Shown piece after piece: positions 7,514-60,690 of a stretch of DNA of 61,486 nt. Both the position numbers and the translations under genes were made by a program. Under the pieces are notes generated by a model, which worked only from the letters and a program-made list of their open reading frames with translations, ran no database searches and was not told the DNA's origin. Within the stretch, counting starts at the first letter, position 1. The number at the start of each line of letters is the position of its first letter. The stretch lies in contig DCGU01000076.1 in NCBI GenBank assembly GCA_002315325.1, positions 1 through 61,486 of the forward strand, read 5' to 3'. Source of the stretch: Clostridiales bacterium UBA1770. Lineage in GTDB: Bacteria; Bacillota; Clostridia; Oscillospirales; CAG-272.

Positions 7514-9457
7514 ATGAACGAAAACGAAACGATTGAAAATTCGATAAATCAACAAAATAAACAGGCACTGCGTCCTCTGTCCTGCCGCGTCGCCGTCATC
7601 GGTGCCGGCCACGCCGGCATCGAGGCCGCGCTGGCATCTGCCCGCATGGGGCTGGACACCGTGCTGTTCACCATGTCGCTGGAGTCCGTCGGCAATATGC
7701 CCTGCAACCCCTGCATCGGCGGTACGGCCAAGGGGCATTTGGTTTTTGAAATCGACGCCCTGGGCGGCGAGATGGGTCGCGCGGCCGATATCTGCACGAT
7801 GCAGTCCCGCACGCTCAATCTGGGCAAGGGGGCTGCCGTGCACTCCAAGCGCGTGCAGGCCGACCGCAAAAAGTACCAGGCGTATATGAAACACGTGCTG
7901 GAAACCACGCCCAATCTGCGTTTGGTACAGTCCGAAATTGTGGCCGTGGAAACCGAAACGGTATCCGAAAACGGCGCGGAACGCCAATACGTGCGCGCCG
8001 TAAAGACCAAACTGAACGAACGCTGGAGCTGCGATGCCGCCATCGTGGCAACGGGCACTTATTTGGAAAGTTCCATCTTCGTCGGGGACGTCGTGTATGG
8101 CGCGGGGCCGGACGGCTTTTTGCCGTCGAGCGGACTTTCGGCGTCACTTGCCTCGTTGGGACTCAAACTTGTCCGCTTTAAAACGGGTACGCCGGCGCGC
8201 GTCAACAAACGCTCCATTGATTTTACAGAACTGGAAGAGCAGCCGGGCGAGGAGACGATTATCCCCTTCTGCGCCGACCATTCCCCCGCTATGTTCGACG
8301 GGCTTCAACAAAGCCCCTGCCATATCGTGTACACCAACGACGAAACCCATCGCATCATAAAAGAGAATATTAAGCGCAGCGCCATGTATTCCGGCCACAT
8401 TCGCGGCACGGGCCCGCGCTATTGTCCCTCCATCGAGGATAAAATCGTGCGCTTTGCCGACAAAGAGCGGCACCAGCTGTTTGTGGAACCCCTGGGCGAG
8501 AACACCGAGGAGATGTATATCCAGGGTTTTTCCACCTCACTCCCGACGGACGTGCAGCTGGAAATGTACGCAACGCTCAAGGGCTTTCAAAATTGCGAAA
8601 TCATGCGCTATGCCTACGCCATAGAATATGACTGCGCCGACCCCACCCAAATGGACGCCACGCTCGGTTTTAAGGCCGTAGGCGGCCTTTACGGTGCCGG
8701 GCAGTTCAACGGCACCTCCGGATACGAGGAAGCGGCCGCACAGGGCTTAATTGCCGGTATCAACGCGGCTTTGTGGCTCAAGGGTGAGGAACCCCTGATT
8801 CTGCAGCGCAGCGACGGCTATATCGGGACCCTGGTGGATGATCTTGTGACCAAGGGCACAAACGAGCCCTACCGTATGATGACCTCACGTTCCGAGTACC
8901 GCCTGCTGTTGCGCCAGGATAATGCCGATTTGCGCCTGACCCCCATGGGGCACCGCGTCGGCCTTGTCACGACGGAGCGATATGACAGATTTCTTGCCAA
9001 AAAGGCACGCCAGGAGGCCGAGATAGAACGCCTGGAGCACGCGCACGTATCCTTAGCAGATGCTAACAGCGTACTGGAAAAGGCCGGTGAAAAGCCGGTT
9101 GTCAGCGGCGTGACGCTGGCGGATTTATTGCGTCGTCCCCCCGTATCGTATGCCGATTTGAGCGCCATTGACCCCGAAAGACCCGCACTTTCCCCGCAGG
9201 AAAAGCTGACGGTGGAAGTATCGGTGAAGTACGAGGGGTATATTAAAAAGGAACTGGCGGAAGTGGCGCGCCACAAAAAGCTGGAAGATAAACAATTATC
9301 CCCGGATATCGATTACAATACCATCGCAGGTCTGCGCTTGGAAGCAGCCCAAAAACTGAACAAAGTGAAGCCCCTGTCCGTGGGGCAGGCGGCCCGTATC
9401 AGCGGTGTTTCCCCTGCAGACGTTTCGGTTTTGCTGATTTGGCTGGGATTGAAATAA
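7514..9457 (+). CDS. mnmG: tRNA uridine 5-carboxymethylaminomethyl modification enzyme MnmG (GidA)
   Basis: 647 aa with an FAD-binding VIGAGHAGIEAA motif. The PCNPCIGGTAKGHL, GPRYCPSIEDK and YAIEYD blocks and the C-terminal GLRLEAAQKL/ARISGVSPADVSVLL are diagnostic of MnmG. Confidence 0.95.
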   Translation: MNENETIENSINQQNKQALRPLSCRVAVIGAGHAGIEAALASARMGLDTVLFTMSLESVGNMPCNPCIGGTAKGHLVFEIDALGGEMGRAADICTMQSRTLNLGKGAAVHSKRVQADRKKYQAYMKHVLETTPNLRLVQSEIVAVETETVSENGAERQYVRAVKTKLNERWSCDAAIVATGTYLESSIFVGDVVYGAGPDGFLPSSGLSASLASLGLKLVRFKTGTPARVNKRSIDFTELEEQPGEETIIPFCADHSPAMFDGLQQSPCHIVYTNDETHRIIKENIKRSAMYSGHIRGTGPRYCPSIEDKIVRFADKERHQLFVEPLGENTEEMYIQGFSTSLPTDVQLEMYATLKGFQNCEIMRYAYAIEYDCADPTQMDATLGFKAVGGLYGAGQFNGTSGYEEAAAQGLIAGINAALWLKGEEPLILQRSDGYIGTLVDDLVTKGTNEPYRMMTSRSEYRLLLRQDNADLRLTPMGHRVGLVTTERYDRFLAKKARQEAEIERLEHAHVSLADANSVLEKAGEKPVVSGVTLADLLRRPPVSYADLSAIDPERPALSPQEKLTVEVSVKYEGYIKKELAEVARHKKLEDKQLSPDIDYNTIAGLRLEAAQKLNKVKPLSVGQAARISGVSPADVSVLLIWLGLK

Positions 9458-9459
9458 CA

Positions 9460-9690
9460 GCTGATAGCTGATGGCTGATAGCGGATAGCTGATAGCGGAT
9501 AGCCGATAGCGGATAAAAGATAGCAGATGGCTGATAGCGGATAGCCGATAGCGGATAGCCGATAGCGGATAGCAGATAGCAGATGGCTGATGGCTGATAG
9601 CTGATAGCTGATAGCTGATAGCTGATAGCAGATGGCTGATAGCTGATAGCGGATGGCTTATAGCTAATAGGGGATTGCGGATAGCTGCAG
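9460..9690. repeat. Perfectly phased heptanucleotide tandem repeat (GCNGATR, 32-33 units)
   Basis: Units start at 9460+7k with no indel over 231 bp. GCTGATA, GCGGATA, GCCGATA, GCAGATA and GCTGATG predominate. The tract fills most of the mnmG-rsmG intergenic space. Confidence 0.95.
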
Positions 9691-9738
9691 AAAGCAGACA
9701 ACGGTATGATTGCAAAAGAAATACGAAAGGAGCGGGAA

Positions 9739-10800
9739 ATGAACAAAAGTCAACGCCAACCCACAAACAAGCCCAAAGATAATAAAGGCAAAAAAGCTGC
9801 AACTAATAACACCACGTGCGCGAACGAAAAGGCAAAACACAACGATAACCGCGAAGCGCGTCCGGCACAAAGCGGGATGCGTACCGGGCTGCTCGACACG
9901 GCGCCCAAAAAGGAAAAGGCCGTCGCGTTTGACGTTGCACTCTTCCGCACCTACACCCCGCTTGCACTGCAGGCCAACGGCATTGATACAAATCAGTATT
10001 ACACACCGGCACAGGCTGCACTGTACGAACGGTTCTTCGCACAATTGTTCACTGTGAACGCCTATATGAATCTGACTGCCATTCGCTCCACAACCGAGGC
10101 GATTGTGAAACATTTGGTGGACTCCCTGACGATTGCATCTATGATCCCGCAGGGTGCCCACGTCCTTGACGTGGGATGCGGCGGCGGGTTCCCCTCGGTT
10201 CCACTGTGCATTGCACGGCCGGATATTCGCATCATCGCCTTTGACGCCACGGCAAAGAAGGTTGAATTCGTGAAGGGAATAGGAGAAGAGTTAGCAACGG
10301 CTAACTTGTCAACTTCCGTCGGGCGTGCAGAAGAATATGCCCATAAAAACGGCTGGAGAGAGTCCTTTGACGTTGTTGTCAGCCGGGCTGTTGCCAATAT
10401 GGCGGCACTGTGCCAGATCACCCTGCCCTTCGTCAAGATGGGCGGAGAGGTCATTGCCATGAAGGGGCCGAACGGCCTGCAGGAACTGCAGGTGGCCCTG
10501 CCGTTAATCCGCACCTATGGCGGAGAAACAAAACAAATTGATTGGACTAAGATTACGTTGAAGTCGCCGTTGCTGTCTTCTATAACGGGTACTCCCCTGC
10601 CCTGCACCGCGCAGGACGCGCCGACACCCGAGAACGGCTGCGCCTGCACACCCATAGAAGCCAACGTAACTTCCCCCGATCAGGCAGATAATGAACGCAC
10701 CATCCTATGCATTCGTAAAGCAGAACCTACGCCGCCCGTATTGCCCGGGACCTGGGCCCAAATCACGAAAGAGGCGGATAAGGCAAACGGTAAGGTCTAA
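9739..10800 (+). CDS. rsmG: 16S rRNA m7G methyltransferase RsmG (GidB) with N-terminal extension and C-terminal insertion
   Basis: The start is set at ATG 9739 behind AAAGGAG. The core contains NLTAIRS, VLDVGCGGGFPSVPL (SAM motif), SRAVA and the terminal LCIRKAEPTP block typical of RsmG. There is a ~75-aa K/N-rich N-terminal tail and a ~45-aa insert before the last block. Confidence 0.85.
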   Translation: MNKSQRQPTNKPKDNKGKKAATNNTTCANEKAKHNDNREARPAQSGMRTGLLDTAPKKEKAVAFDVALFRTYTPLALQANGIDTNQYYTPAQAALYERFFAQLFTVNAYMNLTAIRSTTEAIVKHLVDSLTIASMIPQGAHVLDVGCGGGFPSVPLCIARPDIRIIAFDATAKKVEFVKGIGEELATANLSTSVGRAEEYAHKNGWRESFDVVVSRAVANMAALCQITLPFVKMGGEVIAMKGPNGLQELQVALPLIRTYGGETKQIDWTKITLKSPLLSSITGTPLPCTAQDAPTPENGCACTPIEANVTSPDQADNERTILCIRKAEPTPPVLPGTWAQITKEADKANGKV

Positions 10801-10814
10801 ACGGTTGATATCTC

Positions 10815-10857
10815 ACGCGTTAAGTGCTTTTGAAAAGGCGCTTAACGCGTTTTTTTG
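10815..10857 (+). terminator. Rho-independent terminator after rsmG
   Basis: A 13-bp stem (ACGCGTTAAGTGC / GCGCTTAACGCGT, one G-U pair) is followed by TTTTTTT. Confidence 0.75.
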
Positions 10858-11168
10858 AGCAAATCAATGGGTTGACAGCCATAGAACGTGCTTCTCGTGC
10901 GCATAATGGCCTGCCGAGATTGTCTACCCATTGAAATCAATCAAAAAACGGCGCAATGACAACTACGGTCGAATGGATCGGCTATATACGCCACAAATGC
11001 AGGTAAAATGACACAAATTCGGCAGATATTTTCGGGAAAACAATGCCACACTCCGTATTTCTGAGTTGACAATGCTGCGAATAACTAAAATACTCTCAAT
11101 TGAGCCGTTGTTGGTCGATTTTGAACCAAATCGGCACATTTTGAGACAAAAAACAACGATATATCACC

Positions 11169-11194
11169 GGCAGGGAATTCACCTGCCCTTTTTT
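11169..11194 (+). terminator. Hairpin plus T6 terminator-like signal inside the gene-free gap
   Basis: GGCAGG-N7-CCTGCC is followed by C and TTTTTT. No annotated gene lies upstream, so it may end a small transcript. Confidence 0.45.
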
Positions 11195-11267
11195 ATTGGT
11201 TTTGGGTGACTGAAGCGGTATATTCGCCGTTGCGGGTTCCGTTAATATCAGCATTACCGTATTAGCG

Positions 11268-14213
11268 TGTTTCACGTGAAACAAATGGCTCATTAGATCA
11301 AAACATCAGACACATTGTCGCCCAAAAGACGTTTCCGGCCCCATTTTGCGCTGATAAGACCATTGTTTCTTGATATCAGGGGCACGCAGATGTAAAATTG
11401 CCTATTGTAATGCGTTTATTCGTTAGAAAATGATTGTTTCACGTGAAACATTGATGGAATATCACTCAATTCTGTGCCGGAATCACTTTGAAATGATTCT
11501 TTAACGATAGAATTAACCAATATTTGGCCATGTGATACGTTATCATCCGGTGTTTAACCAATTCTTGCATAAAACTGAGAGATTCTACCTGATATCAACT
11601 GATTTTCAACATCGGTTGGCTGTGTTTCACGTGAAACGTGGCGTTATGACCGCCATATCGTTATTATTATGAGCGTTTATAGACAAATAATAGCAAAATA
11701 TAGCATTTTATGCCATTGCATCTATTGTTTCACGTGAAACGCAGCATAATGACTGCTATATCGTTATAACTATGACCGTTTAGAGACAAATAATGGCAAA
11801 ATGCGGCGTTTTTGTGTCATTGCATCTATTGTTTCACGTGAAACACAGCGTTATGACTACATATCGTTATCAACATGCCCGTTTATATACAAATTATAGC
11901 AAAATGCGGCATTTTGCATCATTGCTCTTATTGTCTCGCGTGAAACATGGTGTTTTGATTACACAATCGTCAAAATCATGGCCTCTTGCAGATAAATGAT
12001 GACCAAATACGGCATTCAAACACTATTTATTCGATTGTTTCACGTGAAACGTGACGTATTGATCGCAAAATTGTCATAATCATAGCCCTTTTTCTACAAA
12101 TTATAAATAAATGCAGCATTGTTCGGCAGTAATTCAATTGTTTCACGTGAAACAGTGGTTTTGTGCCTTCTATAACCGGTTTATCTTAAAATAAATGCCA
12201 TTTCATCTTGAAATAATGATTTAAAGTCATCCTTATTACGTTTCAATGAGTATATTCGACGTTAACTGCCCTTAGTTTTGGAGTCTGGGCTTATATTTCC
12301 TTGCTTTTCAGCTGCTTTTGACGTTTTATCTTTGTACACCGGTTAAGAACGCCTTTATAAACACGTTTTTTAGAATAAATAAAGAAAAAACATCCTATTT
12401 TTTACTTATTTTCACCGTATTGCTGCCAATATACCGTTTTTATGCCGATAATTTCGGTCTCTTATGTATAGTTGAGCGGCTATATTTGATTTATCGACAA
12501 AATGGCTCATTTTTTGCAAATTGTTTCACGTGAAACGCGAATATAGCGCTTTTATCCGCAATTATATCTGATTTTTGCTGTTCTTCATATTCTTTTGCCG
12601 TAAAATCACCCGTTTTTATTTGCAAATAATGGTATGGAAACGTTTTGGCTGAAAAACGCAAATTCAACCCGGCTGCAGTGCCACATTTTATATAAATTCG
12701 TGTTATTCTTGCATTATTGACCCCAAAATGGCGATGAAAACCGTTTGTTTTGGCGCAAAATAACCTCAAAAATGGTTCGGGGCTGATAAGTTTAAGCCTT
12801 AAGCGGCTTGCATCGGTAAATTGTCGTTTCTTTCTTGTTTTTCTTGATGAAAAGGGCTGATTTTTCTTCCGTTTATTGGAATAACGAGCCGCAATTTGCA
12901 TGAAAAAGCATATAGATACTGTTATTTAGCCGATTGTGCATCGAAACAAACGTTCCTGTGAATGATTACCTGTATATTTCCGATTTAGTGCCGTAATTAT
13001 GCATTTTTGAGCTGCTTTTTTATTATGTTTCACATGAAACATAGAATGTTTGGTGTCGGGTGCGCTGTATTCTTTAAAAAATGCCGGCAATCTTGCTTTT
13101 TGATGCGTTTTTGCAATGATTAATCTTGAGAACGGCCGGAATCTTGATTTGTATTGTGAATTTGGCTTCTAAAACGCCATTCTTAATTGATTTTGCTGTA
13201 CAATCTGCTCTGAACGTCGGTTTATTGGCAATAACTTAAGTATTGGCATTGAAAACGCGAATGCTTCCTGATCAGAACCGGATTTAGATGCAAAAATGCA
13301 TATTGTTGAACGTATATTTGCTTTCCACACGTCAAATTAACTCATTTGGGCGGCATTTAGCATTAAAACTCACGATTATTAGCTACATTGTAATTTGCTA
13401 TGCTGCAATACTGTATTGAACCCGATGATAACGTTTATTGCGGCGTTTTTGCGCGCAAAATGATGGTTTGCACGGGATTTTGCCGTTATATCCGAGATAA
13501 AATCGGTCAAAAGGTCGCTGAATAATAGGGAAATGGCTCGATTGCGCCTAATGTGCCGACAATTGCAACCGTTTCCTGACTTTTCTTTGTTTCACGTGAA
13601 ACATAATGCTGTTTTTATGAGTTTATTGTTATTCTTTTGATGAGATATATTAGATAAATCCCCATTTTGCAGCGTTTCTGCAACCTTTTTGCACGATATA
13701 GTCGTATATTATAAGATTCGCTTGATTAATTTGCCATAGTGCGACTAAAATACTGCGTTAAAGCTTGTTTTGGGTCTCTGATGCGTTCGTAATGCCACGT
13801 ATTATATGCTTTTTGTTGAATGTCTGGCTATAGTTCTCACAATTGAAGCCAAAATTGACATTCTTTGGCTTTTTCGTTGAATGATCGTGCTAAAAACAAT
13901 CATTCTTTCGCGTTTCACGTGAAACAATTGCTTGTCAAACCAATATTTACTCGATTTTAGCCCGTAGATGCACTTGATATGTTGTAATCTGATTTTGCTC
14001 GGTAAAAACGGTGCATTTCGAGCAAAAAGGGCAGGGAAGTAAACGAAAATGCGCCGAACGTTTCACGTGAAACATATTCATGACGCCTATTTACATCGTT
14101 TCATTTGATTTTTGTTTGACGCCTGCCCTTCTTTGCTCATTTATCATCGCTTTGTGCTGCAAAGAGACGATTGTTTGTCGAAACGCAACGTTGACAACGT
14201 TTCACGTGAAACA
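11268..14213. promoter_or_regulatory. parS: Array of 14 parS (ParB-binding centromere) palindromes
   Basis: The exact 14-bp core GTTTCACGTGAAAC occurs in 16-mers starting at 11268, 11435, 11623, 11726, 11830, 12036, 12139, 12522, 13588, 13911, 14059 and 14198. Variants are TGTCTCGCGTGAAACA at 11932 and TGTTTCACATGAAACA at 13026. All match the chromosomal parS consensus TGTTNCACGTGAAACA. Confidence 0.85.
11623..12154. repeat. Degenerate ~103-bp tandem repeat, each unit starting with a parS site
   Basis: parS starts at 11623, 11726, 11830, 11932, 12036 and 12139 give spacings of 103, 104, 102, 104 and 103 bp. The inter-parS spacers are alignable (for example ...ATATCGTTAT...GACAAATAATRGCAAAATG...CATTGCATCTAT). 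Confidence 0.85.
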
Positions 14214-14307
14214 ATCCCTATTATATTTTCACTTTTACGTTTTCAACGTTCGTAAATCACGGCCTCAACGGCTTCATACTTTATTTTCCGTTTCTTGCAC
14301 CGTGCTC

Positions 14308-14336
14308 TTGCACATTCCCTTTATATATGATATAAT
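14308..14336 (+). promoter_or_regulatory. Sigma-70-type promoter upstream of parA
   Basis: TTGCAC (14308-14313), a 17-nt spacer, then TATAAT (14331-14336). It lies ~165 nt upstream of the parA ATG and downstream of the last parS. Confidence 0.5.
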
Positions 14337-14500
14337 AATAATGCTGAAAATGGGGTTCAGGGATCGTAATACTGACCCCAAAATCAATTCATTATTCAAA
14401 ATAGCATCCAATTTAACTTTGCAGTAAAACAAACCCGAATGCCGGCAATTTTTGCATTTGTTCGGTTCATATTCGGGTGACGAAGAGAAAGGAAAGAATC

Positions 14501-15262
14501 ATGGGAAAAATTATCTCTTTTGCCAACCAAAAGGGCGGTGTCGGTAAGACAACCTCCGCTATTAACGTTGCAGCCAGCCTGGGTTACATCGGCAAGAAAA
14601 CGTTGCTGATTGACCTTGACCCCCAGGGTAACTCCACTTCCGGTGTCGGTATTACCAAAAAAGGTCTGAAAAAGACCATTTATGACGTTCTGACCGACGG
14701 TACGGACATTCACGAGGCTATTATTGCCACCAAGTTCGATAATTTGAGCGTTATCCCCTCCACTATCGCGCTGGCAGGCGCCGAACTGGAGCTGATCGAG
14801 ATTGAAAACAGCGAATACCGTATGCGTGACGCTCTGAATCTCATTCGTGACGATTTCGACTACATTATTATTGACTGCCCGCCTTCCCTGGGTATGTTGA
14901 CCGTGAATGCCCTGTCCGGCTCCGACGGCGTCGTTATCCCCATGCAGTGCGAATTCTATGCGTTGGAAGGTTTGTCCCAGCTGATGAATACCGTATCCCG
15001 CATTCGTTCCCACTACAACGAAAAGTTGTCCGTAACCGGTATCCTGATTACCATGTACAATGCAAGACTGCTGCTTTCCCTGCAGGTTATCAACGAAATG
15101 GAGAAACACTACTCCGATAAGCTGTTCTCCACGATGATTACCCGTTCCGTTCGCCTGTCCGAGGCACCCGGCTTCGGCCGCCCGATTTGCTACCATGATC
15201 CCAAGGGTAAAGCTGCCCAGGAATACATGGCCATTGCCAAGGAATTGGCCGAAAGAATCTAA
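14501..15262 (+). CDS. parA: Chromosome partitioning ATPase ParA/Soj
   Basis: The start is set at ATG 14501 behind AAAGGAAAG. It has the deviant Walker A KGGVGKTT, the DLDPQGN and IIIDCPPSLG blocks, and a typical 253-aa length. Confidence 0.92.
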   Translation: MGKIISFANQKGGVGKTTSAINVAASLGYIGKKTLLIDLDPQGNSTSGVGITKKGLKKTIYDVLTDGTDIHEAIIATKFDNLSVIPSTIALAGAELELIEIENSEYRMRDALNLIRDDFDYIIIDCPPSLGMLTVNALSGSDGVVIPMQCEFYALEGLSQLMNTVSRIRSHYNEKLSVTGILITMYNARLLLSLQVINEMEKHYSDKLFSTMITRSVRLSEAPGFGRPICYHDPKGKAAQEYMAIAKELAERI

Positions 15263-15361: not shown

Positions 15362-16258
15362 ATGCCGAAGAAAGCAGGTCTAGGAAAAGATTTCTTTTCC
15401 ATTATGGATGATAACACCATCGAGGAAGCCAAAGGTTCCGCTTCCACGTTGCGTATCTCCGATATTGAGCCCAGATCCAACCAGCCCCGTAAAGATTTCG
15501 AGCACGAAGCGCTGGAACAGTTAGCCGATTCCATTTCGGTCTACGGTGTCCTGCAGCCCATCATCGTTCGTGAAAACCCCAATGCCGCCGGCACGTATGA
15601 AATCATTGCCGGTGAGCGCCGCTGGCGCGCTGCCAAGATGGCAGGGTTGTCTGAAATTCCCGCCGTCATTCTGGAAGGGGATGAACTCAAGGCTGCCCAG
15701 GTTGCCCTGATTGAAAACATCCAGCGTGAAGACCTCAACCCCGTTGAAGAAGCCTTCGGTTATCAGTATTTGATTGAGAACTTTGGGCTGAAACAGGAAG
15801 AGGTTGCCCAGCAGGTTGGCAAGAGCCGCTCTGCCGTGGCCAATATGCTGCGTCTGATCGATTTGCCCGAGGAAGTACTCGAGTTATTGAAGGACGGCAG
15901 CCTCTCCACGGGCCACGCGCGCGCATTACTCGGCCTGGAAAGGGAAGAGGACATGCTGCCCCTGGCACAAAAAGTCATTGCCAAAGCCCTGAACGTACGC
16001 GATACCGAGCGTGCCGTTAAGGCTCTGAACGCCGCTGCCGACGAAAACGAAGTGGAATCCACCTTTGTGGACGCTTCCGTCCGTCAGCGCAAGGTTTACA
16101 TGAAGGATTTGGAACGCCGCGCGCTGTCTTCCCTGGGCCGTAAGGTTCGTATTACCGATAACGGTAAGAAGCAGACGCTGGAAATTGCTTACAACGGTGA
16201 CGACGATCTGGAATCGCTGCTCAAGCTGTTGTGCGGTGACGATTTCTTCAATGCCTGA
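15362..16258 (+). CDS. parB: Chromosome partitioning protein ParB/Spo0J
   Basis: 298 aa with the GLGKDF N-terminus. It has the QPR, LQPIIVR and GERRWRAAKMAGL (CTP-binding ParB box) motifs and an HTH region EEVAQQVGKSRSAVANMLRL. Confidence 0.92.
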   Translation: MPKKAGLGKDFFSIMDDNTIEEAKGSASTLRISDIEPRSNQPRKDFEHEALEQLADSISVYGVLQPIIVRENPNAAGTYEIIAGERRWRAAKMAGLSEIPAVILEGDELKAAQVALIENIQREDLNPVEEAFGYQYLIENFGLKQEEVAQQVGKSRSAVANMLRLIDLPEEVLELLKDGSLSTGHARALLGLEREEDMLPLAQKVIAKALNVRDTERAVKALNAAADENEVESTFVDASVRQRKVYMKDLERRALSSLGRKVRITDNGKKQTLEIAYNGDDDLESLLKLLCGDDFFNA

Positions 16259-16325: not shown

Positions 16326-17618
16326 ATGATCGATATTAACTATATCAAAACAAACCCCGAAGAGGTCATTGCCCGCTTTGCCACCAAGGGTAAGGAAGCA
16401 AGAGCCGAAATTGAAAACATTATTGCCCTGGACAACGAACGCCGCGTTCTCATCTCCGAGAACGAGCAGATGAAGGCCGAGGCCAATAAAACCAACAAGC
16501 TGATTCCCCAAATGAAGAAAGAGGGCAAGGACGTTTCCGAAATCTTCGCCCGTATGAAGGAAATCGGCGCAATCACCAAGGCCAACGACGATAAGCAGAA
16601 GACGATTGAGGAAGAACTGTCCAACCTCTTGTTGAGCCTGCCCAACCTGCCCGACCGCGACCTCAAGGCCGGCGGTAAGGAGAACAACGAGCCCCTGCGT
16701 TACTACGGCGAGCCCCGCAAGTTCGATTTCGAACCCAAGAATCACGTCGATCTGTGCACCGACCTGGGTTTGATTGACTACAAACGCGCCGCAAAACTGT
16801 CCGGCGCCGGCTACTGGATCTATTCCGGTATGGGTGCGCGTCTGGAATGGGCAATTCTCAACTATTTCATCGATTTCCACACCAATAACGGCTACCAGTT
16901 TATGCTGGTGCCCCATATGCTGGGCTACGAATGCGGCCAGACGGCCGGTCAGTTCCCCAAATTCAAGGATGAAGTGTACTGGCTGGAGAAGCAGGACGAC
17001 GACGAACGCCGCCGTTTCATGCTGCCCACGGCCGAAACCGCGCTGGTCAGCCTGCACCGCGATGAAATCCTGACCGAGGCAGACCTGCCCAAGAAGTATT
17101 TCGCTTATACCCCCTGCTTCCGCCGTGAGGCCGGTTCCTACCGCGCCGACGAGCGTGGTATGGTGCGCGGTCACCAGTTCAATAAGGTGGAAATGGTACA
17201 GTACACGCTGCCCGAAAAGAGTGACGAGGCGTTTGACGAGCTCGTTACCAATGCCGAGAACCTGGTGAAGGGTCTGGGCTTCCACTTCCGTACCGTGAAA
17301 CTGGCTGCCGAGGACTGCTCCGCATCCATGGCGCGTACCTACGATATCGAAATCAACATTCCTTCCATGAACGGCTATAAAGAAGTATCCTCCGTGTCCA
17401 ACGCCCGCGATTACCAGGCCAGACGCGGTATGATGCGTGTCAGACGCGCAGACGGACGTTTGGAGTATTTACATACCCTGAACGGCTCCGGTCTCGCTAC
17501 AAGCCGAATTTTCCCCGCTCTGGTGGAGCAGAACCAGAATGCCGACGGCAGCGTCAACGTGCCCGACGTGCTCAAGAAGTACCTGGGCGGCATCGACGTG
17601 CTGCGTAAGCCGGAATAA
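16326..17618 (+). CDS. serS: Seryl-tRNA synthetase
   Basis: 430 aa with an N-terminal coiled-coil arm. Class II motifs include FRREAGS and GSGLATSR, and the end is SerS-like. Confidence 0.93.
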   Translation: MIDINYIKTNPEEVIARFATKGKEARAEIENIIALDNERRVLISENEQMKAEANKTNKLIPQMKKEGKDVSEIFARMKEIGAITKANDDKQKTIEEELSNLLLSLPNLPDRDLKAGGKENNEPLRYYGEPRKFDFEPKNHVDLCTDLGLIDYKRAAKLSGAGYWIYSGMGARLEWAILNYFIDFHTNNGYQFMLVPHMLGYECGQTAGQFPKFKDEVYWLEKQDDDERRRFMLPTAETALVSLHRDEILTEADLPKKYFAYTPCFRREAGSYRADERGMVRGHQFNKVEMVQYTLPEKSDEAFDELVTNAENLVKGLGFHFRTVKLAAEDCSASMARTYDIEINIPSMNGYKEVSSVSNARDYQARRGMMRVRRADGRLEYLHTLNGSGLATSRIFPALVEQNQNADGSVNVPDVLKKYLGGIDVLRKPE

Positions 17619-17641: not shown

Positions 17642-18292
17642 ATGACCCTTTCGTTTGTACCTGCCGCAAGGCATTTAGTCAAGGTGGGACTCGATTCCAC
17701 CGTGTGGGAGGACGTCGCCGCGTACTTTACAAAGCTCTACGACGGTTTCAAGGACGTTAATCCCGCCAAAAACGGCTCTGTTTCGGTTTTCTGGATATTT
17801 ATCGGCTTATGCACGGGTATTATCCTTACAACCGTTTTTATGACCGTTTACAGGCGTCTGTGCGGGCCCCTGGTCCGCAAGCTGCTGTCGGCGGCTGCGG
17901 CCCCTGACCAAGCCAAGACGCTGGATGAACTCGGTATGAACACACCGCTTGTACGAATGGCCCTGTCCGGAAACGGGGAAATATCCCGTATCGTTTCCTG
18001 TGTCGAGGCCGATGCGCACGTACAGGCAGTCCTTGCTTCTTCGGCTGATGAGGGTCGGCCGAAGAAGATAAAGGATGACGCTTTGCTGTTCTCCTATCGG
18101 GGCAAATGGGATACGCTGCATTTTTACGTGAGTGAAAAGAATGCGTTTATCGCGGACGAGCATTTCAGTGAAAAGAACGGCCGTCTGCTCCCCATGTTCG
18201 TTACGATTGCTTTCGCCTTGCTCCTGACGTGGGTGCTTTTGCTGGTCGGCCCGTCCATTATTGGCTGGGCAGCAGCCAATTTAGTGAAATAA
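17642..18292 (+). CDS. Hypothetical membrane protein
   Basis: 216-aa ORF with two predicted TM helices (VFWIFIGLCTGIILTTVFMTV and the C-terminal FVTIAFALLLTWVLLLVGPSII). No family was recognised. The start codon is uncertain because there is no clear RBS. Confidence 0.5.
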   Translation: MTLSFVPAARHLVKVGLDSTVWEDVAAYFTKLYDGFKDVNPAKNGSVSVFWIFIGLCTGIILTTVFMTVYRRLCGPLVRKLLSAAAAPDQAKTLDELGMNTPLVRMALSGNGEISRIVSCVEADAHVQAVLASSADEGRPKKIKDDALLFSYRGKWDTLHFYVSEKNAFIADEHFSEKNGRLLPMFVTIAFALLLTWVLLLVGPSIIGWAAANLVK

Positions 18293-18394
18293 ATCCCTGA
18301 CGGGATTTGTGAAATACGTCTACGACGTGTGAAATTGTCCTTCGGACAGTGAAATACGCCTGCGGCGTGTGAGATGTCCTGCGGACAGTGAAAC
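18284..18394 (+). repeat. 20-nt periodic array: GTGAAAT linkers alternating with short covarying hairpins
   Basis: GTGAAAT occurs at 18284, 18309, 18329 and 18349, GTGAGAT at 18369 and GTGAAAC at 18388. The intervening hairpins are AAATCCC/GGGATTT, ACGTC/GACGT, TGTCC/GGACA, ACGCC/GGCGT and GTCC/GGAC. Confidence 0.8.
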
Positions 18395-23137: not shown

Positions 23138-26100
23138 ATGATGAAAAAGCTTTTGAGTGTGCTGCTGGCGCTGACCATGATGACGAGCCTGGTATCCGTG
23201 TTCGCCGTCGACGTCGGTGCAGAGGAGCCGAGCCTGCAGGCTACGGCTGCCCCCGCGGTACCCGATGCAGTCGCCGATGATCCCGACAGATATACGATCA
23301 TCGTCCCGACAAAGAGTGACGTTGCCGTCGTGGAGGGAGTGCCGGTTGCCTGGCCTGCCTCTCCTTTTGTCAACCTTGACTATATTGAAGTGAACGGGAT
23401 ATTCGACAAACAAATCGTCACCTCTTGTGACGTGACCGATTTCGTGTCAACAGCATTCCCGGAATCTGCTGCCGACGCGTACTTTTATGCGTCACTGGTC
23501 GATGCGGGCATGGGGGACTATGATTCCACGTCTGCGTATCGCAACGGTACAATTAAGATTAATAAAATAACTTCCCTCAAGTATGCATACGTACAGGACC
23601 AGCCTGCGCCGACAGGAACGGAACTTATGCAAGACAAAAACTTTGTTTATGACGTTTTATCTACGTATAAAATGGGCTATGAAGCCTATTTTGAAACGGA
23701 CGCTGTCGGCAACGTGAATAAGGTACACATTGACTATGATTTTACGTCCAAAAATCAAAACGATGACAAACAGGAGTGTACCACGCACCTTTTAGCGTTT
23801 GCTGGGACTGTAGATCAGTCGATGAACGTGACGCCCGTTTTACAAAAGCTGACGGGTGCGGAGATGCAAACGTACGCGCTGCATGCCGACTCTTTGGCCG
23901 TTCAAAATTACGGGGCAGCGTGGGAGACCGTGTATGATGCAGAGGGGAATGCGGTTACCGGTGCCATTGTATACGATAAAGTGAATAAAGCCTACTTTAC
24001 GGAGTTTGATTTGACTGCGTACGATTTGGCGTCCGGTGTGTACAATATTGCCTTTATCTTAACGTACAAGGACAATTACAACCACCATTACGCGATGGTG
24101 GTGAACAGTGCCCCGGGTTGTTATGGAGTCGAGTACTATGCGCCGGCATACGACGTGCAGATGACGCCCGGTTCCACGGACGACGTTGCTACGACAACGG
24201 ATATTATGATGCAGTATCGCATGAATGAGACCGGGGTGTGGGAGGGCAATGACGTCGTATACGGCGTCAATACCCTGGGTTCCGTTTCCTTCAGAATTAA
24301 AGACGACGCTGCGGAAAAGGCCCCCTACGTCGTCACGATTCCCGATTTTGCTTTCGGTCACTTTGATGAAACGGCTGCCTCCGTTACGTACGACGGTACC
24401 GATTGCGGGGCACTGTTCTCCGCAGACCTCACGCTGCCCGTGATCAATCGCCGTTTCCTTAATTTTAAATTGTACAAGGTTCTCGGCGACGGGCTGCGCC
24501 AATTGGTTTGCACGCCGGAATACACTTATTATAAAAACCTGCTCCGTGAATCCGACTTTTTCTCCTGTGCCGTGCTCAACTCCCTCAACGTCGGTAACTA
24601 CGAGATGGAAATCCTGTACGACGCTGTGGGTGACTACGAACCGGACTATATTACGGTCCCGTTTACCATTACCCCCTACGCAATCGATGAAAACACGCGC
24701 GACGTCTACGTGACGACGATTATCACCGAGTGCGAAGAAGCAGAACCCATCGGCTTTTCCTATGAAACAGAATGGGACGAGAGTTTTGCCGATAATACGG
24801 CCAACCTGGCGGACTATTTGGCGTTCAAACAGGCCTACGCAAACGGCATTTTACCCTCTGCCGCTGAATTGGCATCCGGTGCCGTGACGTCCGCCACGGA
24901 GTTGTACAACCGCTTGCATGCTTCCTACACGGACGTTGTTGCCAAGTATAAGGATGCATTGACGGCGTACAATTTGTTCTATCAAGTGGCAAACAAGCTC
25001 AGCACGTTTGCCCTCAATAAAAATGCAAACGAAACGTTTGCGGATACCGACAGCGACGTGGAGAAAACGTTAATCCATTTATTGCTGAGCTATTATGGAA
25101 CCTATTTGGAAGATGATACAAGAATCCTATGTACGACCGATACGGACGTGGCCATGATGCACTCCTATTTGATGGATGCCTACAACGCGTACGTTGCGTA
25201 TGCGGATGTCTATCGGGCCTTCACGGCGGCCTGCGCAGAGGCCGGCATCACCGTAACGGCGTTTGATGACGCGACGCTTGCGTCCTATGCGCAAACGGTT
25301 GCCGCCTACAGGAGTCTCGTTACCCTGACCGATGCCGAACATTTCTACTGGCGCGCCATCCCCGAAGACGCTGCCGCGTTCACTTTCACGCAGATTGAAC
25401 GCCCGCAATTACCCGGCGGCTTTATTTCCCCGGCAGCAATCGAACGCAGCTATACCGGCGTCGGCCAAACCCCCAACATCCTCCTGACTTACTGTTTTGA
25501 AGGATACAGCATTTACGATGACGGTGCTATGCATACTCCTGTTATTCGCACCGGTTATGCACATGCGTCCGCGATGTATAATCAGGCCGCAACCGATGCT
25601 GTAAGAAATTATTACAATTACTATTCCTGTGTGGTGATTGCTATGCCCAAGACGGGTGTTTGGGCGGATTATAATACCGGTGCCTGTGAGTATCTCTCCT
25701 ATCGGATTCTGCATGACGGCGTCGACGTGCGCCGCAATACCGCACTCCCCGGCACCTACGATATTACCCTTGCTTTCGAGGGGAACTTCACGGGTTCTGT
25801 TGCCGGTTTGACGTATACCGTGAACAAGAACGTCCTGACCAACCCCATGTTTACGGCCGGCACGTCCGAGACGGATTATACGGGTGAAGCCCTGGATGTG
25901 AAGGTGCACCTGACGCAGGTATTATCCGGCCAACTCTATGAAATTGTGCCCGATCGATTAAAGCTGTTCGGGGCAGCGTATAACAATAGCATATCGTTAT
26001 CAAGTTACGTTGACTACGGCTTCTTAAAGGGCGATATGTCTTACACCATTGTTCGTGTGGACGGTGCATCGCTGACCGACGTGGACGAAATCAGGGATGC

Positions 26101-29100
26101 CGGCGAGTATATCGTTACCTATTATTTAAATGACGAACACATCTTGCTGGCAGACGGCACGACGGTGACCGACGTACACGTTACGGTAAACCCCGTCAAC
26201 GTGGCCATCAATGCTGCCGTGAACGGCGCCGCATACGGCGATACGTTGACGGACGTCTTGGCCAAGACCGAGATTAAGGCAATGAACACCTGGCACGGCG
26301 GTACAACGGACAGCGCATTCTCCTATGATCTCAGTAAAGCCGTTTTGGAAGTTTACGAGAAAGACGGCTACGTACCGATGACTGCGACGGCCACGGTGCT
26401 GGCCGGTGAATTATACCGCCTGACCGTACCGGTGACGCTGACCGATGCCGTCAATTTCACGTTTGACGGAAACGACAGCGTACTGAACGGCAATGCGCTG
26501 AGCATCACCTTTGTCGCACAGCGCAGGGTGGTGGATATCATTTGGAGCGAGGGCGATTACGAGAAATACGTTTCCGAAGATAAGGAACTGCCCGTTTCCT
26601 CCGTTGCCGCCTCCTACACCGATATCGATGGTAAAGAAGTGGCACTGCTGGTTACGTGCGAGCACGACCTGACCGGCGCCGGCGTGTACGATATCGACGT
26701 TGCGTTTGCCACTGCCGAGGAGGCCGCCAATTACGAATTCTCCGCTGTCTCCCACAGGGCATTTGTTGTTAAGAAAGATAAGATTACTGTCAGCGACACG
26801 TCGCTTTCCTACGTCACGGACGAAAATTGGATTTATTACGGCCAGCATTATCTGGATTACGGTTTCACCTACGTGATTTCCTTCGCCGGTGAGCATTGCG
26901 GCGATTTTATCATTACCTACAGCGATTACGACCGTACGGCCGAAAAAGAAAACGCTTACGAAAAGTTCACCGTTTGGACGGATACGAGCATCGGCGTGGT
27001 TCCCGGCAGTATCGTCAGACGCATCGCGTCGGGCGATTTGTACAACGGACCGCTGTATATCAATGCCGATGACATGGATCGCATTCCCGTCGGTACGTGG
27101 GTTGACGAGCTGCAATTGTTCGTCAATAACGAAGATTACGAGTTGACGGAAGATACGATTTACGTCTCCTTCTACGTATCGGCAACGGATATGACCGGAC
27201 AGCCGGTTAAAACGGCACCCGATGCCGACCTGTGCTGCACCGGCTATCCCATTGAGCCCGAATTTGTGATTTCTAACCCGTACAGCGGCAGACCCCTGGT
27301 TTCCGGGACCGACTATATTGTGACGTTTGCTTCCAACACCGATGTCGGTACGGCCACCGCATATATTACGTATATCGGCAATTACGTCGGCTCCGCCACC
27401 GTGGAATTCGACCTGGTGAAACGCGACCTCGGCAATATCGCCGACCTGGTCAGCGTAACCGATATGACCTATACCGGCAGCGGTGTTGAACCGACGCCTG
27501 TCTTCCACGTCAACGGCATTCTGATAAAAGCCAAGGATATCGTGGTTACCTACACGGATAACGTTAACGTCGGTACGGCAACCGTTTTGATTCAGGCGGC
27601 AGCCGACGGTAACTTCACGTTTGAAGACGTTGAATTGCCGTTTGCCGTTCTCCCCAAGACGTTGACGGCGTATAACGTCGTCATCCCCGGCGTTACCTAC
27701 GACGGCAGCGCGAAAACGCCCGCCGTTTCGATAGCCGACGGTCAGTGCGCGCTGCAGGCCGGCATCGACTACACGGTGACCTACACGGATAACGTCAACG
27801 CCGGCAACGGTAAAGCGATTATTACGTTCAGCGGCAACTATGCCGGTACCATTGAAAAAGAGTTTGTCATTTCTCCGATCTATATGGGCGGCGCCGACGT
27901 TACGGCAGAATCTGCCGTTTATGACGGCACCGAGAAAACGCCCAACGTGACCGTCACGTACGGCGGCGAAACGGTAAATGCTTCCTATTATGACGTATCC
28001 TATGAGGACAACGTCGATGCCGGCGAAGGAGACGTGATCGTCGTATTCCGCGGCAACTACAGCGGTACCGTTGTCGCCCATTTCACCATTGCGCCGAAGG
28101 ATATGAGCCAAGTACCCGTTGTCATCACCGCTACGGATTACAACGGCAAACCGCAAACCCCGGAACTCATTCTGAAAAACGGCTACGTCGTATTGACGTC
28201 CGGTACCGATTATTACGTTACGTATACCGATAACGTCAACGCCGGCACGGCGAAGGCAACGATTTCCTACTGCGGTAACTACACCGGTACGGTAGAGGTG
28301 CCCTTCACCATCAACGCGTTGGACGGCACGATGACCAAGATTTCTGTTCCCGCTGTTCCGTATACCGGAAAAGAACAAACGCCCACGCCGTACGTCGTGG
28401 ATGAAGTAAACGCGTACGCATTGATCCCGGGCACCGATTTCGTCGTTTCCTATACGGATAACGTCGCGTTCGGCACGGGTATTGCCCATATTACCTTTAT
28501 CGGCAACTACGTCGGCACGATGGACGTCAACTTTGTCATCGGTGAAAAAGATATGAACGGTGCTGTGGCAACCGTGTCCGATATGACCTACACCGGTAAG
28601 GAACTTAAACCTACCGTATGGCTGTACGACGGCAACAACCTCTTAATCGAGGGCAAAGACTTCGACGTCAAGTACAGTGACAACGTCAACGTCGGCACGG
28701 CAAAAGCGGCCATCACCTTCAAGGGCTGCTATAAGGGTACGACGGCAGTAACCTTTGCCGTATTGCCCGCCGATCTTTCTGATACGAACGTTCAGCTTGA
28801 TGACGTTGTATACACGGGCAGCGCCGTAACGCCTGCCATTGTGATCCCGTTCGGTGACGGTAACGTTGATGCGGGCGATTACAAGGCGGTATTTACGAAT
28901 AACGTCAATGCCGGTACCGCTTCCGTTAAGATTACCTTGGGCGGCAACTATAAGGGCGAGATTGTCGCCACGTTTACCGTTCTGCAAAAGAAAGTAACCC
29001 TGACTGCGGCTAACGTCAAAGTTGCCCGTGCCGCCTATACCGGCAAGGCACTCACGCCTGCCGTTACCGTGACCGTGGACGGTTTGGTGCTTGATCCCGC

Positions 29101-30514
29101 CGGCTATACGCTGGCGTATGCCGATAACGTAGAGAAGGGCGCGGCGAGCGTGACGATTACCGCCCGTGACAACGCCAACGTTATTTTCGCCCCCTATACC
29201 GCTTCGTTTACCATTGAAGGTGTCAATGCAGAGAACAGCATCGTTACGCTGCTTGACCACGAGAACTACGTGTACGACGGTACCGAGAAGAAACCCGGTG
29301 TGAGCGTGAAACTGCCCGACGGCACCGTGCTGTACGAGGACGTTGACTACGTTATTTCGTACGCCGATAACGTCAATGCCGGCAGCGCTTGCGTTATCGT
29401 TTCCTTCTTCGGCAACTATTCCGGTACGAAGAGCGTCGGCTTTACCATTGCACGCGCCGCATACGACGCGCAAAAGTTGGCACAGATGGTCTTTGCCGAC
29501 AGCCACGTGCTTTACGACGGACAGCCGCACTCCCTGCTCGTACAAAACGTGCCCGACGATATCCGCGTTACCTACGAGGGTAACAATGCGGTTGCCGTCG
29601 GTAAACACACGATTACCGCTACGTTTGAAACGAACGGCAACTACCTGGATATCCCCGCCATGACTGCTGTGCTGGATATCCGCACGACTGTGAAAAATAA
29701 TACCGATTCGACCGAGACACCCGTGACGCCGACAGGCAGCGACGTGCCCGGTACGGATCCCGTTAACCCGCCCGCCGAAAATCCCGATGAACAGACCGAA
29801 AAGCCTGCAGTCATCGTGGAATATGAAGGCGGTTTCCCCGGCGACGTCACGCTGGTGGTACAGGTCGTTGTCAGCACCGAGATTGAAACCAAGCCCGTCG
29901 AGGAATTGGATTTGACGATCGACTACAACGAACTGCTCGAAAAGGATGAAGTCGTCCTCACGATTTATGACGTAAAACTGATTCAGATTGATGAAAACGG
30001 CGTTGAAACCGAAATCAACGTCAGCGATTTGGACGAGGGGGCCACGATTCTGGTCAAGATGGCCATCCCCGAAGAAATTAAGAACGGCGGCAAATTGACG
30101 CGCGTACTGCACGTACACGATGCCGATGACGTGACCGAAATCCTGCCTTCCGAAACGGGAGAGCCGGCCGTGGGTAAATACGTCATCGACGGTGATTACC
30201 TGATCACCCGCATCGACCGCCTGTCCGAATTTGCTTTCATTACCGAGGCCAAGTGCTGCGTGCATTGGATTATGTTGGCACTGGCTGTACTGTTCATTGC
30301 TTTTGTTCTTGTTTGCTTCTTTGTATTCCGTAAGAAAAAGCACGACTTAATGACCATCATCGGCATTGCCGTCTACGTTGTCGGCATTGTCGTGACTGCC
30401 ATTCTGGGTAATTGCACGGCTTGCGTTGTGTGGACGATTATCAACGCAGTGCTGGCAGTGCTGGGCGCCGCATTCTTTGCGCTGTACGAGCGCATTTTCC
30501 CGCAGCAACCTTGA
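23138..30514 (+). CDS. Giant cell-surface protein (2458 aa): signal peptide, ~11 tandem ~72-aa adhesin-type repeats, C-terminal multi-TM anchor
   Basis: AGGAGG RBS and signal peptide MMKKLLSVLLALTMMTSLVSVFA. The repeats carry Y-[TDN]-G...TP...G-x-DY-x-V-x-Y-x-DNVN-x-GTA...GNY-x-G. The tail has three hydrophobic helices. Confidence 0.9.
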   Translation: MMKKLLSVLLALTMMTSLVSVFAVDVGAEEPSLQATAAPAVPDAVADDPDRYTIIVPTKSDVAVVEGVPVAWPASPFVNLDYIEVNGIFDKQIVTSCDVTDFVSTAFPESAADAYFYASLVDAGMGDYDSTSAYRNGTIKINKITSLKYAYVQDQPAPTGTELMQDKNFVYDVLSTYKMGYEAYFETDAVGNVNKVHIDYDFTSKNQNDDKQECTTHLLAFAGTVDQSMNVTPVLQKLTGAEMQTYALHADSLAVQNYGAAWETVYDAEGNAVTGAIVYDKVNKAYFTEFDLTAYDLASGVYNIAFILTYKDNYNHHYAMVVNSAPGCYGVEYYAPAYDVQMTPGSTDDVATTTDIMMQYRMNETGVWEGNDVVYGVNTLGSVSFRIKDDAAEKAPYVVTIPDFAFGHFDETAASVTYDGTDCGALFSADLTLPVINRRFLNFKLYKVLGDGLRQLVCTPEYTYYKNLLRESDFFSCAVLNSLNVGNYEMEILYDAVGDYEPDYITVPFTITPYAIDENTRDVYVTTIITECEEAEPIGFSYETEWDESFADNTANLADYLAFKQAYANGILPSAAELASGAVTSATELYNRLHASYTDVVAKYKDALTAYNLFYQVANKLSTFALNKNANETFADTDSDVEKTLIHLLLSYYGTYLEDDTRILCTTDTDVAMMHSYLMDAYNAYVAYADVYRAFTAACAEAGITVTAFDDATLASYAQTVAAYRSLVTLTDAEHFYWRAIPEDAAAFTFTQIERPQLPGGFISPAAIERSYTGVGQTPNILLTYCFEGYSIYDDGAMHTPVIRTGYAHASAMYNQAATDAVRNYYNYYSCVVIAMPKTGVWADYNTGACEYLSYRILHDGVDVRRNTALPGTYDITLAFEGNFTGSVAGLTYTVNKNVLTNPMFTAGTSETDYTGEALDVKVHLTQVLSGQLYEIVPDRLKLFGAAYNNSISLSSYVDYGFLKGDMSYTIVRVDGASLTDVDEIRDAGEYIVTYYLNDEHILLADGTTVTDVHVTVNPVNVAINAAVNGAAYGDTLTDVLAKTEIKAMNTWHGGTTDSAFSYDLSKAVLEVYEKDGYVPMTATATVLAGELYRLTVPVTLTDAVNFTFDGNDSVLNGNALSITFVAQRRVVDIIWSEGDYEKYVSEDKELPVSSVAASYTDIDGKEVALLVTCEHDLTGAGVYDIDVAFATAEEAANYEFSAVSHRAFVVKKDKITVSDTSLSYVTDENWIYYGQHYLDYGFTYVISFAGEHCGDFIITYSDYDRTAEKENAYEKFTVWTDTSIGVVPGSIVRRIASGDLYNGPLYINADDMDRIPVGTWVDELQLFVNNEDYELTEDTIYVSFYVSATDMTGQPVKTAPDADLCCTGYPIEPEFVISNPYSGRPLVSGTDYIVTFASNTDVGTATAYITYIGNYVGSATVEFDLVKRDLGNIADLVSVTDMTYTGSGVEPTPVFHVNGILIKAKDIVVTYTDNVNVGTATVLIQAAADGNFTFEDVELPFAVLPKTLTAYNVVIPGVTYDGSAKTPAVSIADGQCALQAGIDYTVTYTDNVNAGNGKAIITFSGNYAGTIEKEFVISPIYMGGADVTAESAVYDGTEKTPNVTVTYGGETVNASYYDVSYEDNVDAGEGDVIVVFRGNYSGTVVAHFTIAPKDMSQVPVVITATDYNGKPQTPELILKNGYVVLTSGTDYYVTYTDNVNAGTAKATISYCGNYTGTVEVPFTINALDGTMTKISVPAVPYTGKEQTPTPYVVDEVNAYALIPGTDFVVSYTDNVAFGTGIAHITFIGNYVGTMDVNFVIGEKDMNGAVATVSDMTYTGKELKPTVWLYDGNNLLIEGKDFDVKYSDNVNVGTAKAAITFKGCYKGTTAVTFAVLPADLSDTNVQLDDVVYTGSAVTPAIVIPFGDGNVDAGDYKAVFTNNVNAGTASVKITLGGNYKGEIVATFTVLQKKVTLTAANVKVARAAYTGKALTPAVTVTVDGLVLDPAGYTLAYADNVEKGAASVTITARDNANVIFAPYTASFTIEGVNAENSIVTLLDHENYVYDGTEKKPGVSVKLPDGTVLYEDVDYVISYADNVNAGSACVIVSFFGNYSGTKSVGFTIARAAYDAQKLAQMVFADSHVLYDGQPHSLLVQNVPDDIRVTYEGNNAVAVGKHTITATFETNGNYLDIPAMTAVLDIRTTVKNNTDSTETPVTPTGSDVPGTDPVNPPAENPDEQTEKPAVIVEYEGGFPGDVTLVVQVVVSTEIETKPVEELDLTIDYNELLEKDEVVLTIYDVKLIQIDENGVETEINVSDLDEGATILVKMAIPEEIKNGGKLTRVLHVHDADDVTEILPSETGEPAVGKYVIDGDYLITRIDRLSEFAFITEAKCCVHWIMLALAVLFIAFVLVCFFVFRKKKHDLMTIIGIAVYVVGIVVTAILGNCTACVVWTIINAVLAVLGAAFFALYERIFPQQP
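27239..29683 (+). repeat. About 11 tandem ~72-aa (about 216-nt) surface-repeat units within the 2458-aa gene
   Basis: The motif YTG/YDG-x3-TP ... GTDY-V-YTDNVNAGTA ... GNYTG recurs with ~70-75-aa spacing. I believe this matches the MBG-type repeat of Firmicute adhesins, but that needs an HMM check. Confidence 0.75.
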
Positions 30515-59482: not shown

Positions 59483-59483
59483 A

Positions 59484-60353: not shown

Positions 60354-60359
60354 CGGGGA

Positions 60360-60680
60360 ATGAGTTATCGATTTATGCGTACAATCGTGATGTTTGACTT
60401 GCCGACAGAGACGGCAGAAAACAAGCGCAACTATCGCCATTTTGTGCGGGCACTTGAGAAAAATGGGTTTATGATGATGCAGGAGTCTGTCTACATCCGT
60501 TTGTTATTGACACCATCCGCGCAAAAACTTGCGGTGGACGCTATCCGTAAATTGAAACCACCGGATGGACTGGTCCAAGTACTAACTGTCACAGAAAAGC
60601 AATTTGCTAATATGGAATATATGGTTGGTGAAGCGCACAGTGAAGTGATTGACAGTGATGAGCGGCTCATCATTTTGTGA
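60360..60680 (+). CDS. cas2: CRISPR protein Cas2
   Basis: 106 aa with the MSYRFMRTIVMFDLP ferredoxin-like start and QESVY motif. Confidence 0.9.
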   Translation: MSYRFMRTIVMFDLPTETAENKRNYRHFVRALEKNGFMMMQESVYIRLLLTPSAQKLAVDAIRKLKPPDGLVQVLTVTEKQFANMEYMVGEAHSEVIDSDERLIIL

Positions 60681-60690
60681 GGAATAGCAA

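Follow-up and report, generated by a model that had tools for sequence, protein, structure and literature searches.

In Myxococcus xanthus, 22 parS sites (24 by another count) form a cluster of about 3 kb upstream of parAB, and purified ParB shifts the whole 3.1-kb parS fragment in vitro (PMC3899335, PMC3778016). Corynebacterium glutamicum carries ten sites, parS1-10, within 35 kb, nine of them intergenic, and ParB and SMC are both enriched there (PMC7083940). The OMM12 gut isolates hold 1-10 mostly clustered parS at the point where the secondary diagonal crosses in Hi-C maps (PMC10197239), and in vitro the condensation force of ParB with cytidine triphosphate (CTP) grows with parS number across 7, 13 and 26 sites (PMC8299390). 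Here we analyze a stretch of 61,486 bases from Clostridiales bacterium UBA1770 (assembly GCA_002315325.1, contig DCGU01000076.1; hereafter the window), in which 14 parS lie between rsmG and the partition genes parA and parB. We consider it likely, with a probability of roughly 85%, that this locus is a chromosomal ParABS centromere whose 14 parS upstream of parA-parB grew, in a non-coding stretch and partly by duplication of a 103-bp unit, from the cluster of 2-4 sites usual in the lineage. The identity of the sites, their confinement within the window, the canonical ParB and ParA, selection on the binding cores and the conserved position of the cluster in relatives carry this reading.

The locus resembles that of M. 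xanthus in packing consensus-type 16-bp palindromes near parAB, at 14 per 3 kb compared to 22 per 3 kb, and a dense cluster of the M. xanthus type, taken as ten or more parS packed into a few kb next to parAB, is what the window holds. It differs in that M. xanthus belongs to another phylum, has a GC-rich genome, uses the variant TGTTCCACGTGGAACG and places its cluster about 4 kb from parA, whereas the array in the window abuts parA. With C. glutamicum the likeness is to a single cluster, in that species on one side of the origin, ParB-bound, SMC-loading and at the apex of chromosome folding, but the C. glutamicum sites are about ten times less dense and have genes between them. The sopC centromere of plasmid F consists of 12 repeats of 43 bp, each with a SopB-binding inverted repeat. 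It is similar in its short tandem units with one ParB-family palindrome each, beside a parAB-type operon, but it belongs to a plasmid, has another binding sequence and is built of near-identical contiguous repeats, whereas only 6 of the 14 sites in the window are in tandem and their units have diverged. Bacillus subtilis Spo0J shares the 16-bp consensus and the protein family, with the gene order rsmG-noc-soj-spo0J, but its sites are scattered across a far wider stretch around the origin, one of them inside spo0J, and form no tandem array (see also PMC8357415).

The exact core GTTTCACGTGAAAC occurs 12 times at 11269-14212 (starts at 11269, 11436, 11624, 11727, 11831, 12037, 12140, 12523, 13589, 13912, 14060 and 14199) and had no match in 100 shuffles. 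Scanning the whole window for the 16-mer with up to two mismatches added two variants and no further parS outside 11268-14213, parB included, which gives 14 parS in 3 kb versus 0 in the remaining 58 kb. Both scans thus bear out an earlier reading of this DNA (the original prediction), which had counted 12 exact cores and 2 variants between rsmG and parA and had noted that parB contains no site of its own. Compared to the parS consensus TGTTNCACGTGAAACA, 5 sites are perfect 16-mers, 8 have one mismatch and 1 has two, and the 14-bp core is perfect in 12. All are listed without strand. The perfect 16-mers (TGTTTCACGTGAAACA) are parS 1 (11268-11283), parS 2 (11435-11450), parS 5 (11830-11845), parS 8 (12139-12154) and parS 11 (13588-13603), and the form TGTTTCACGTGAAACG, its core perfect, is found at parS 3 (11623-11638), parS 4 (11726-11741), parS 7 (12036-12051) and parS 9 (12522-12537). 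The variants are parS 6 (11932-11947; TGTCTCGCGTGAAACA, two mismatches), which is degenerate, and parS 10 (13026-13041; TGTTTCACATGAAACA, one mismatch, central CG to CA). Nearest to parA, the form CGTTTCACGTGAAACA makes up parS 12 (13911-13926), parS 13 (14059-14074) and parS 14 (14198-14213), the last lying 288 bp 5' of the parA ATG; parS 13 and 14 align with parS of the closest relative (L004, 81% ParB identity). The array spans 2,946 bp, or one site per ~210 bp, and falls into two isolated sites (11268 and 11435), six on a tandem repeat (11623-12154), three set wide apart by ~400-560 bp (12522, 13026 and 13588) and three proximal to parA at spacings of 139-148 bp (13911, 14059 and 14198).

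The tandem block (11623-12154, no strand) is a diverged repeat with a period of 102-104 bp, comprising five units, the first opened by parS 3, and a terminal site, parS 8, that closes it. Tandem Repeats Finder gave a period of 103 with 82% matches and 3.1 copies, in agreement with a repeat family (D1) from a separate repeat search. Head-to-tail units carrying sites, as expected of a tandem-repeat centromere, account for 6 of the 14 parS, and the other 8 have unrelated flanks. Alignment of the units showed that the 16-bp cores are 91-92% identical, compared to 55-65% for the spacers, with 5 of 6 cores intact. By their divergence in sequence the tandem units are old, and because the cores are so much better kept than the spacers, each parS appears to be individually maintained by selection; this contrast between core and spacer is the strongest internal evidence that we have. 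Compared to L004, the upstream region can be aligned essentially at the parS cores alone.

Several finer patterns within the array were considered. The CGTTTCACGTGAAACA form, with C for T at position 1, is found in the window at 13911, 14059 and 14198 and in relatives at L085 (9008 and 9044), L087 (124 and 160) and L090 (3963). This recurrence of the CG-start form beside parA, common to relatives at 66-69% ParB identity, may reflect a conserved asymmetric flank of ancestral promoter-proximal sites. An ordered orientation of the imperfect sites, with four ending in AAACG on the left and three starting with CGTTT by parA, was rejected as not significant, because three of the left sites share one duplication and a sorted order arises about 1 time in 9 by chance. 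The 102-104-bp spacings correspond to ~9.8 helical turns and the remaining spacings are unphased. A second protein-binding motif in the spacers was likewise discarded, as k-mer counts with parS masked gave just weak enrichments of AT-rich words (for example CATTTTGC, 6 in the gap versus 3 elsewhere).

Directly downstream of the array lie parA/soj (14501-15262, plus strand) and parB/spo0J (15362-16258, plus strand), as the original prediction had stated in placing the consensus parS directly upstream of parA-parB. ParA is a protein of 253 aa from the ATG at 14501 (the open reading frame, ORF, opens with GTG at 14477, and the start is taken from the gene call in an identical contig, L001), with Pfam matches to AAA_31 (E=3.5e-68), CbiA and ParA. 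As the ParA/Soj ATPase that partners ParB, it shares an operon with parB, and its gene stops 99 bp short of parB. The 298-aa ParB, the presumed cognate binder, carries Pfam ParB_N and HTH_ParB domains, and its best matches in the PDB are M. xanthus ParB (7bnk, E=3e-56), B. subtilis Spo0J (6sdk) and Caulobacter ParB (6t1f); it also matches Thermus thermophilus Spo0J, and E values against solved structures range from 1e-51 to 1e-56. The CTP motif GERRxRA is present as GERRWRA. Aligned to Spo0J and M. xanthus ParB (motifs G153-K154-S155-R156...N161 and G184-H185-A186-R187), R156 and G184 correspond to Caulobacter R173 and G201, which are absolutely conserved in ParB and are Q and R in Noc (PMC7383237). 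With ParB_N, the CTP motif, the helix-turn-helix and the parS-type specificity residues all in place, the adjacent ParB is canonical as judged by its sequence.

All relatives examined keep parS immediately upstream of parA. The closest, L004, has at least 4 parS, with 4 perfect copies in the 310 bp before its contig ends, and relatives at 66-69% ParB identity (L085-L090) have 2-4 sites at 36-50-bp spacing within the few hundred bp before parA. Other Clostridia have 5-8 parS in the same slot. In a ParB-based comparison sample of 80 GTDB species, measured as the most parS in any 3 kb, the median was 2 and the maximum 8, so the window with 14 tops an ordinary sample. The cluster is thus conserved in position. 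The original prediction had presented the array as a departure from the normal arrangement of parS, which does not hold up: in this clade a tight cluster between rsmG/noc and parA is the norm, numbering 2-4 sites at 66-69% ParB identity and as many as 8 elsewhere in Clostridia. It had also regarded the architecture as exceptional, which was overstated because dense clusters beside parAB are known and larger ones exist; clustered, mostly intergenic parS have been described in C. glutamicum (PMC7083940), gut bacteria (PMC10197239) and M. xanthus (PMC3899335, PMC3778016). Its remark that the array sits in the slot of noc is right for L005, L007, L089, L090 and L105, all of which have noc between rsmG and parA, and noc is missing from L085 and L088. 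However, the array does not replace noc, as L105 has both noc and 8 parS.

Amplified clusters recur in the comparison sample. A Lachnospiraceae metagenome-assembled genome (MAG; L020) has 8 sites with a 46-bp period, L006 has 5 sites 33-35 bp apart, and the isolate Blautia sp. HCP28S3_G10 (L035:5730-9170) has 6 sites on 5-6 tandem units of ~600-700 bp, 90-96% identical and with one perfect parS each, in 3.4 kb upstream of parA that is gene-free but for overlapping ORFs derived from the repeat. Given this identity, amplification of the parS unit in Blautia looks recent. These three resemble the window in position upstream of parA, in consensus and in tandem amplification, and the Blautia array also in being gene-free and of similar length, but they have fewer sites, other unit lengths and other repeat ages. 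In a Ruminococcus sp. (L017), an 11-kb stretch contains 17 TGTTCCACGTGGAACA-type sites, of which two are degenerate. Scanning metagenomes for three cores at ~100-bp spacing returned at least 120 contigs, and among the matches listed were arrays of 11-17 sites in low-GC contigs.

Very large arrays also appeared among the matches listed (L176, L147, L186, L208, L190, L156, L116 and L159), with up to 66 parS in 11 kb in L176 and 54 in 9 kb in L147, on a 359-kb contig. Their sites are grouped in two dense blocks, and the conserved insert of ~2.95 kb between the blocks encodes an old yellow enzyme (OYE)-type NADH:flavin oxidoreductase and an SBF-like transporter. The named homologues (59-64% identity) of the AlgH-like protein that flanks them are all from Corynebacterium, which points to a Corynebacterium-like organism; arrays of 66 sites far exceed the 10 of C. 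glutamicum. No parAB was found in the retrieved stretch of these contigs.

The gap that houses the array (10801-14500, 3.7 kb, no strand), assessed by GC content, ORFs, Pfam, Rfam and tblastn, is a gene-free, AT-rich intergenic region. On its left it is bordered by rsmG (9706-10800, plus strand), which encodes the 16S rRNA m7G methyltransferase (Pfam GidB, E=4.7e-38) and is followed by a terminator-like hairpin and T-run (10815-10850, plus strand; a 16-pair stem and then TTTTTTT, a consensus match only). On its right, between parS 14 and parA, lies a promoter-like site, TGCACA-16-TATAAT with a TG extension (14309-14336, plus strand), also only a consensus match and of putative function. GC content is 37.4% in the gap, compared to 50-58% in neighboring genes and 26-50% in the other intergenic regions of the window; since it falls within the intergenic range, the AT-richness is that of ordinary non-coding DNA here and no sign of foreign DNA. 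The longest ORF encodes 136 aa (12491-12901, minus strand), has no Shine-Dalgarno-like sequence by direct reading and, in an exhaustive HMMER search of 1.84 billion representative proteins, matched itself and one spurious stretch of 38 residues. No Pfam match was found for the 8 gap ORFs of at least 50 aa at E<=1. The view that the stretch has no credible ORF therefore stands, with nothing longer than 136 aa, no Pfam match and an orphan as the longest; the accompanying claim that each ORF is built around the FHVK translation of the palindrome applies to 5 of these 8 ORFs and fails for the other 3.

We considered whether the gap could be something else that happens to bear parS, for instance an origin of replication, the decayed remains of a mobile element or plasmid, or pseudogenes with noc among them. 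Its AT-richness, its 3.7 kb without genes and the presence of noc in this slot in some relatives would fit such a reading, but the searches make it highly improbable. A tblastn comparison of the gap with every ORF of 80 aa or more in the related loci L004-L084 returned noise only and no remnant of noc, which together with the Pfam and HMMER negatives speaks against hidden genes or pseudogenes, and Rfam found no family in the gap at gathering thresholds or at E<=1, ruling out a known structured RNA. No plasmid or phage similarity was found, and with a GC content typical of the genome's intergenic DNA a foreign origin was rejected. A Noc system, recognized by a ParB paralogue with Q/K/K/R specificity residues and by its binding sites, was excluded as well: the window contains no ParB-like sequence besides ParB itself, no remnant of one in the gap, and no match to the Noc-binding site (NBS, ATTTCCCGGGAAAT, up to two mismatches). 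As for an origin, the DnaA box TTATCCACA has no perfect copy in the window; three one-mismatch boxes lie in the gap at about twice the window-average density (24 in 61 kb, compared to a shuffle mean of 12.9 per window), and these do not form the DnaA-box cluster in an AT-rich intergenic region by which oriC is recognized. That the array is an assembly artefact of collapsed or expanded repeats, one of the possibilities under which the original prediction would have failed, is scarcely credible. Short palindromic repeats can break assemblies, and one Logan contig (L002) does end exactly at parS 13. However, the units have diverged, and no exact repeat within the gap is longer than the one of 27 bp, so that unique flanks anchor each site and the array is not a product of collapse or expansion. 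In addition, the JGI metagenome contig L001 contains all 14 sites at 100% identity over 14.7 kb, and in two other samples the contigs that cover the flank agree with it at 99.97-100% identity.

Two further alternatives accept the sites as genuine parS. Array size could be non-adaptive, the outcome of slippage or unequal recombination in permissive intergenic DNA, with copy number drifting and one or a few sites sufficing. The sufficiency of a single parS in C. glutamicum favors this view (PMC7083940), as does the range of units (33, 46, 103 and ~600 bp) and of site numbers (2-14) across related lineages, which resembles repeated unconstrained amplification. We nevertheless hold it to be unlikely, because an unselected 14-bp core would rarely survive at the rate at which the spacers have diverged: the tandem units are old, with 55-65% identity between spacers, and still 5 of the 6 cores have stayed intact, which argues that individual copies are maintained. 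Less likely again is that the array is chiefly regulatory rather than a segregation site. It would then either act as a sink for ParB or form an operator field, with the ParB that spreads from it repressing the parAB promoter or adjusting Soj activity. From the last site it is ~100 bp downstream to the promoter-like element and 288 bp to the parA ATG, and each relative examined keeps sites in the parA upstream region, but autoregulation would need just the 2-4 promoter-proximal sites that relatives have, and 11 of the sites here are 0.6-3.2 kb distant from parA. Regulation and segregation are, moreover, compatible with each other.

Several points weigh against the reading of the locus as an enlarged centromere. 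Binding of ParB at these parS is a prediction from sequence, and the confinement of parS holds for 61 kb of the genome. Neither dnaA nor a DnaA-box cluster was found in the window, and the cumulative GC skew stays level over the first ~18 kb before it climbs. In a relative at 66% ParB identity (L088, GCA_045597145.1), dnaA-dnaN lie 8.5 kb downstream of parB (L088:18499-20900), whereas the corresponding region of the window holds ABC transporters and giant ORFs with no dnaA within 45 kb, indicating that the origin region has been rearranged between these relatives. Within the gap, the longest stop-to-stop frame of 144 codons exceeds most shuffles (98 +/- 18, with 2.7% of shuffles reaching it), which makes an orphan small gene conceivable. 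Finally, one parS is enough for normal growth of C. glutamicum (PMC7083940), and an advantage of 14 sites is therefore not guaranteed.

If the locus is the centromere that we propose, an ancestral cluster of 2-4 sites would have been enlarged, in part via tandem duplication of the 103-bp parS unit. By analogy with the known family, ParB dimers would bind each palindrome, take up CTP, close as clamps and slide onto the AT-rich flanks, and one loading site per ~210 bp across 3 kb would yield a dense ParB condensate. This condensate would be moved by ParA and would most likely load SMC-ScpAB. Core conservation argues that every site is used, while the single-site result from C. glutamicum argues for much redundancy in their number. 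The array is a large case of an arrangement that is common in relatives and already known from Myxococcus, and it is neither a new type of element nor a new mechanism. It does add an uncultured gut lineage of Clostridia to those with a clear parS array of high copy number, with clusters upstream of parA as the default of the clade that can expand by tandem duplication while their binding cores stay under selection. This should be of use in annotating origins and centromeres in MAGs, and such loci are natural test cases for the effect of parS number on ParB condensates and SMC loading.

A broader interpretation is that several lineages have independently built gene-free "regional centromeres" by amplifying parS units, with site number, AT-rich spacers and the lack of transcription units as the selected properties. 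Examples would be the window (14 sites), Blautia (6 units of ~600-700 bp), the Lachnospiraceae MAG (8 x 46 bp) and the Corynebacterium-like arrays (up to 66 sites in 11 kb). We put this forward tentatively and would sooner doubt it than rely on it. If it is true, these properties would determine how large the ParB-CTP condensate becomes and how fast SMC is loaded, and parS copy number would be a fast-evolving tuning knob of chromosome organization.

Other features of the window are recorded here as minor observations. Between rsmG and the first parS, the plus strand at 11066-11200 has a promoter-like site (11066-11094) and, farther 3', a hairpin and T-run that resemble a terminator (11169-11187), and the 106 nt at 11095-11200 fold at -30.2 kcal/mol (z = -3.5 compared to shuffles) with no match in Rfam; we regard this segment as a candidate small RNA. 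RsmG is 364 aa long, compared to 241-251 aa in relatives, and has an N-terminal extension of ~100 aa (9706-10020) that is of low complexity and rich in lysine, asparagine and threonine. Pfam identifies mnmG (7514-9457) and serS (16326-17618) as the other flanking genes, and the mnmG-rsmG intergenic region (9459-9687) is filled by 32.7 copies of the heptanucleotide AGCTGAT, a microsatellite that the independent contig L001 carries in identical form. A Gut-1 RNA (Rfam RF01706, 76 bits, E=1.6e-13) lies at 18282-18360 on the plus strand, just 3' of a hypothetical gene of 216 aa. A type II-A CRISPR-Cas operon (55415-61362, plus strand) encodes Cas9 (1355 aa), Cas1 and Csn2, and the window stops before any repeat array. 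Between these and 3' of the partition locus, three giant ORFs run on the plus strand at 23138-30514 (2458 aa), 30652-36420 (1922 aa) and 42684-54329 (3881 aa).

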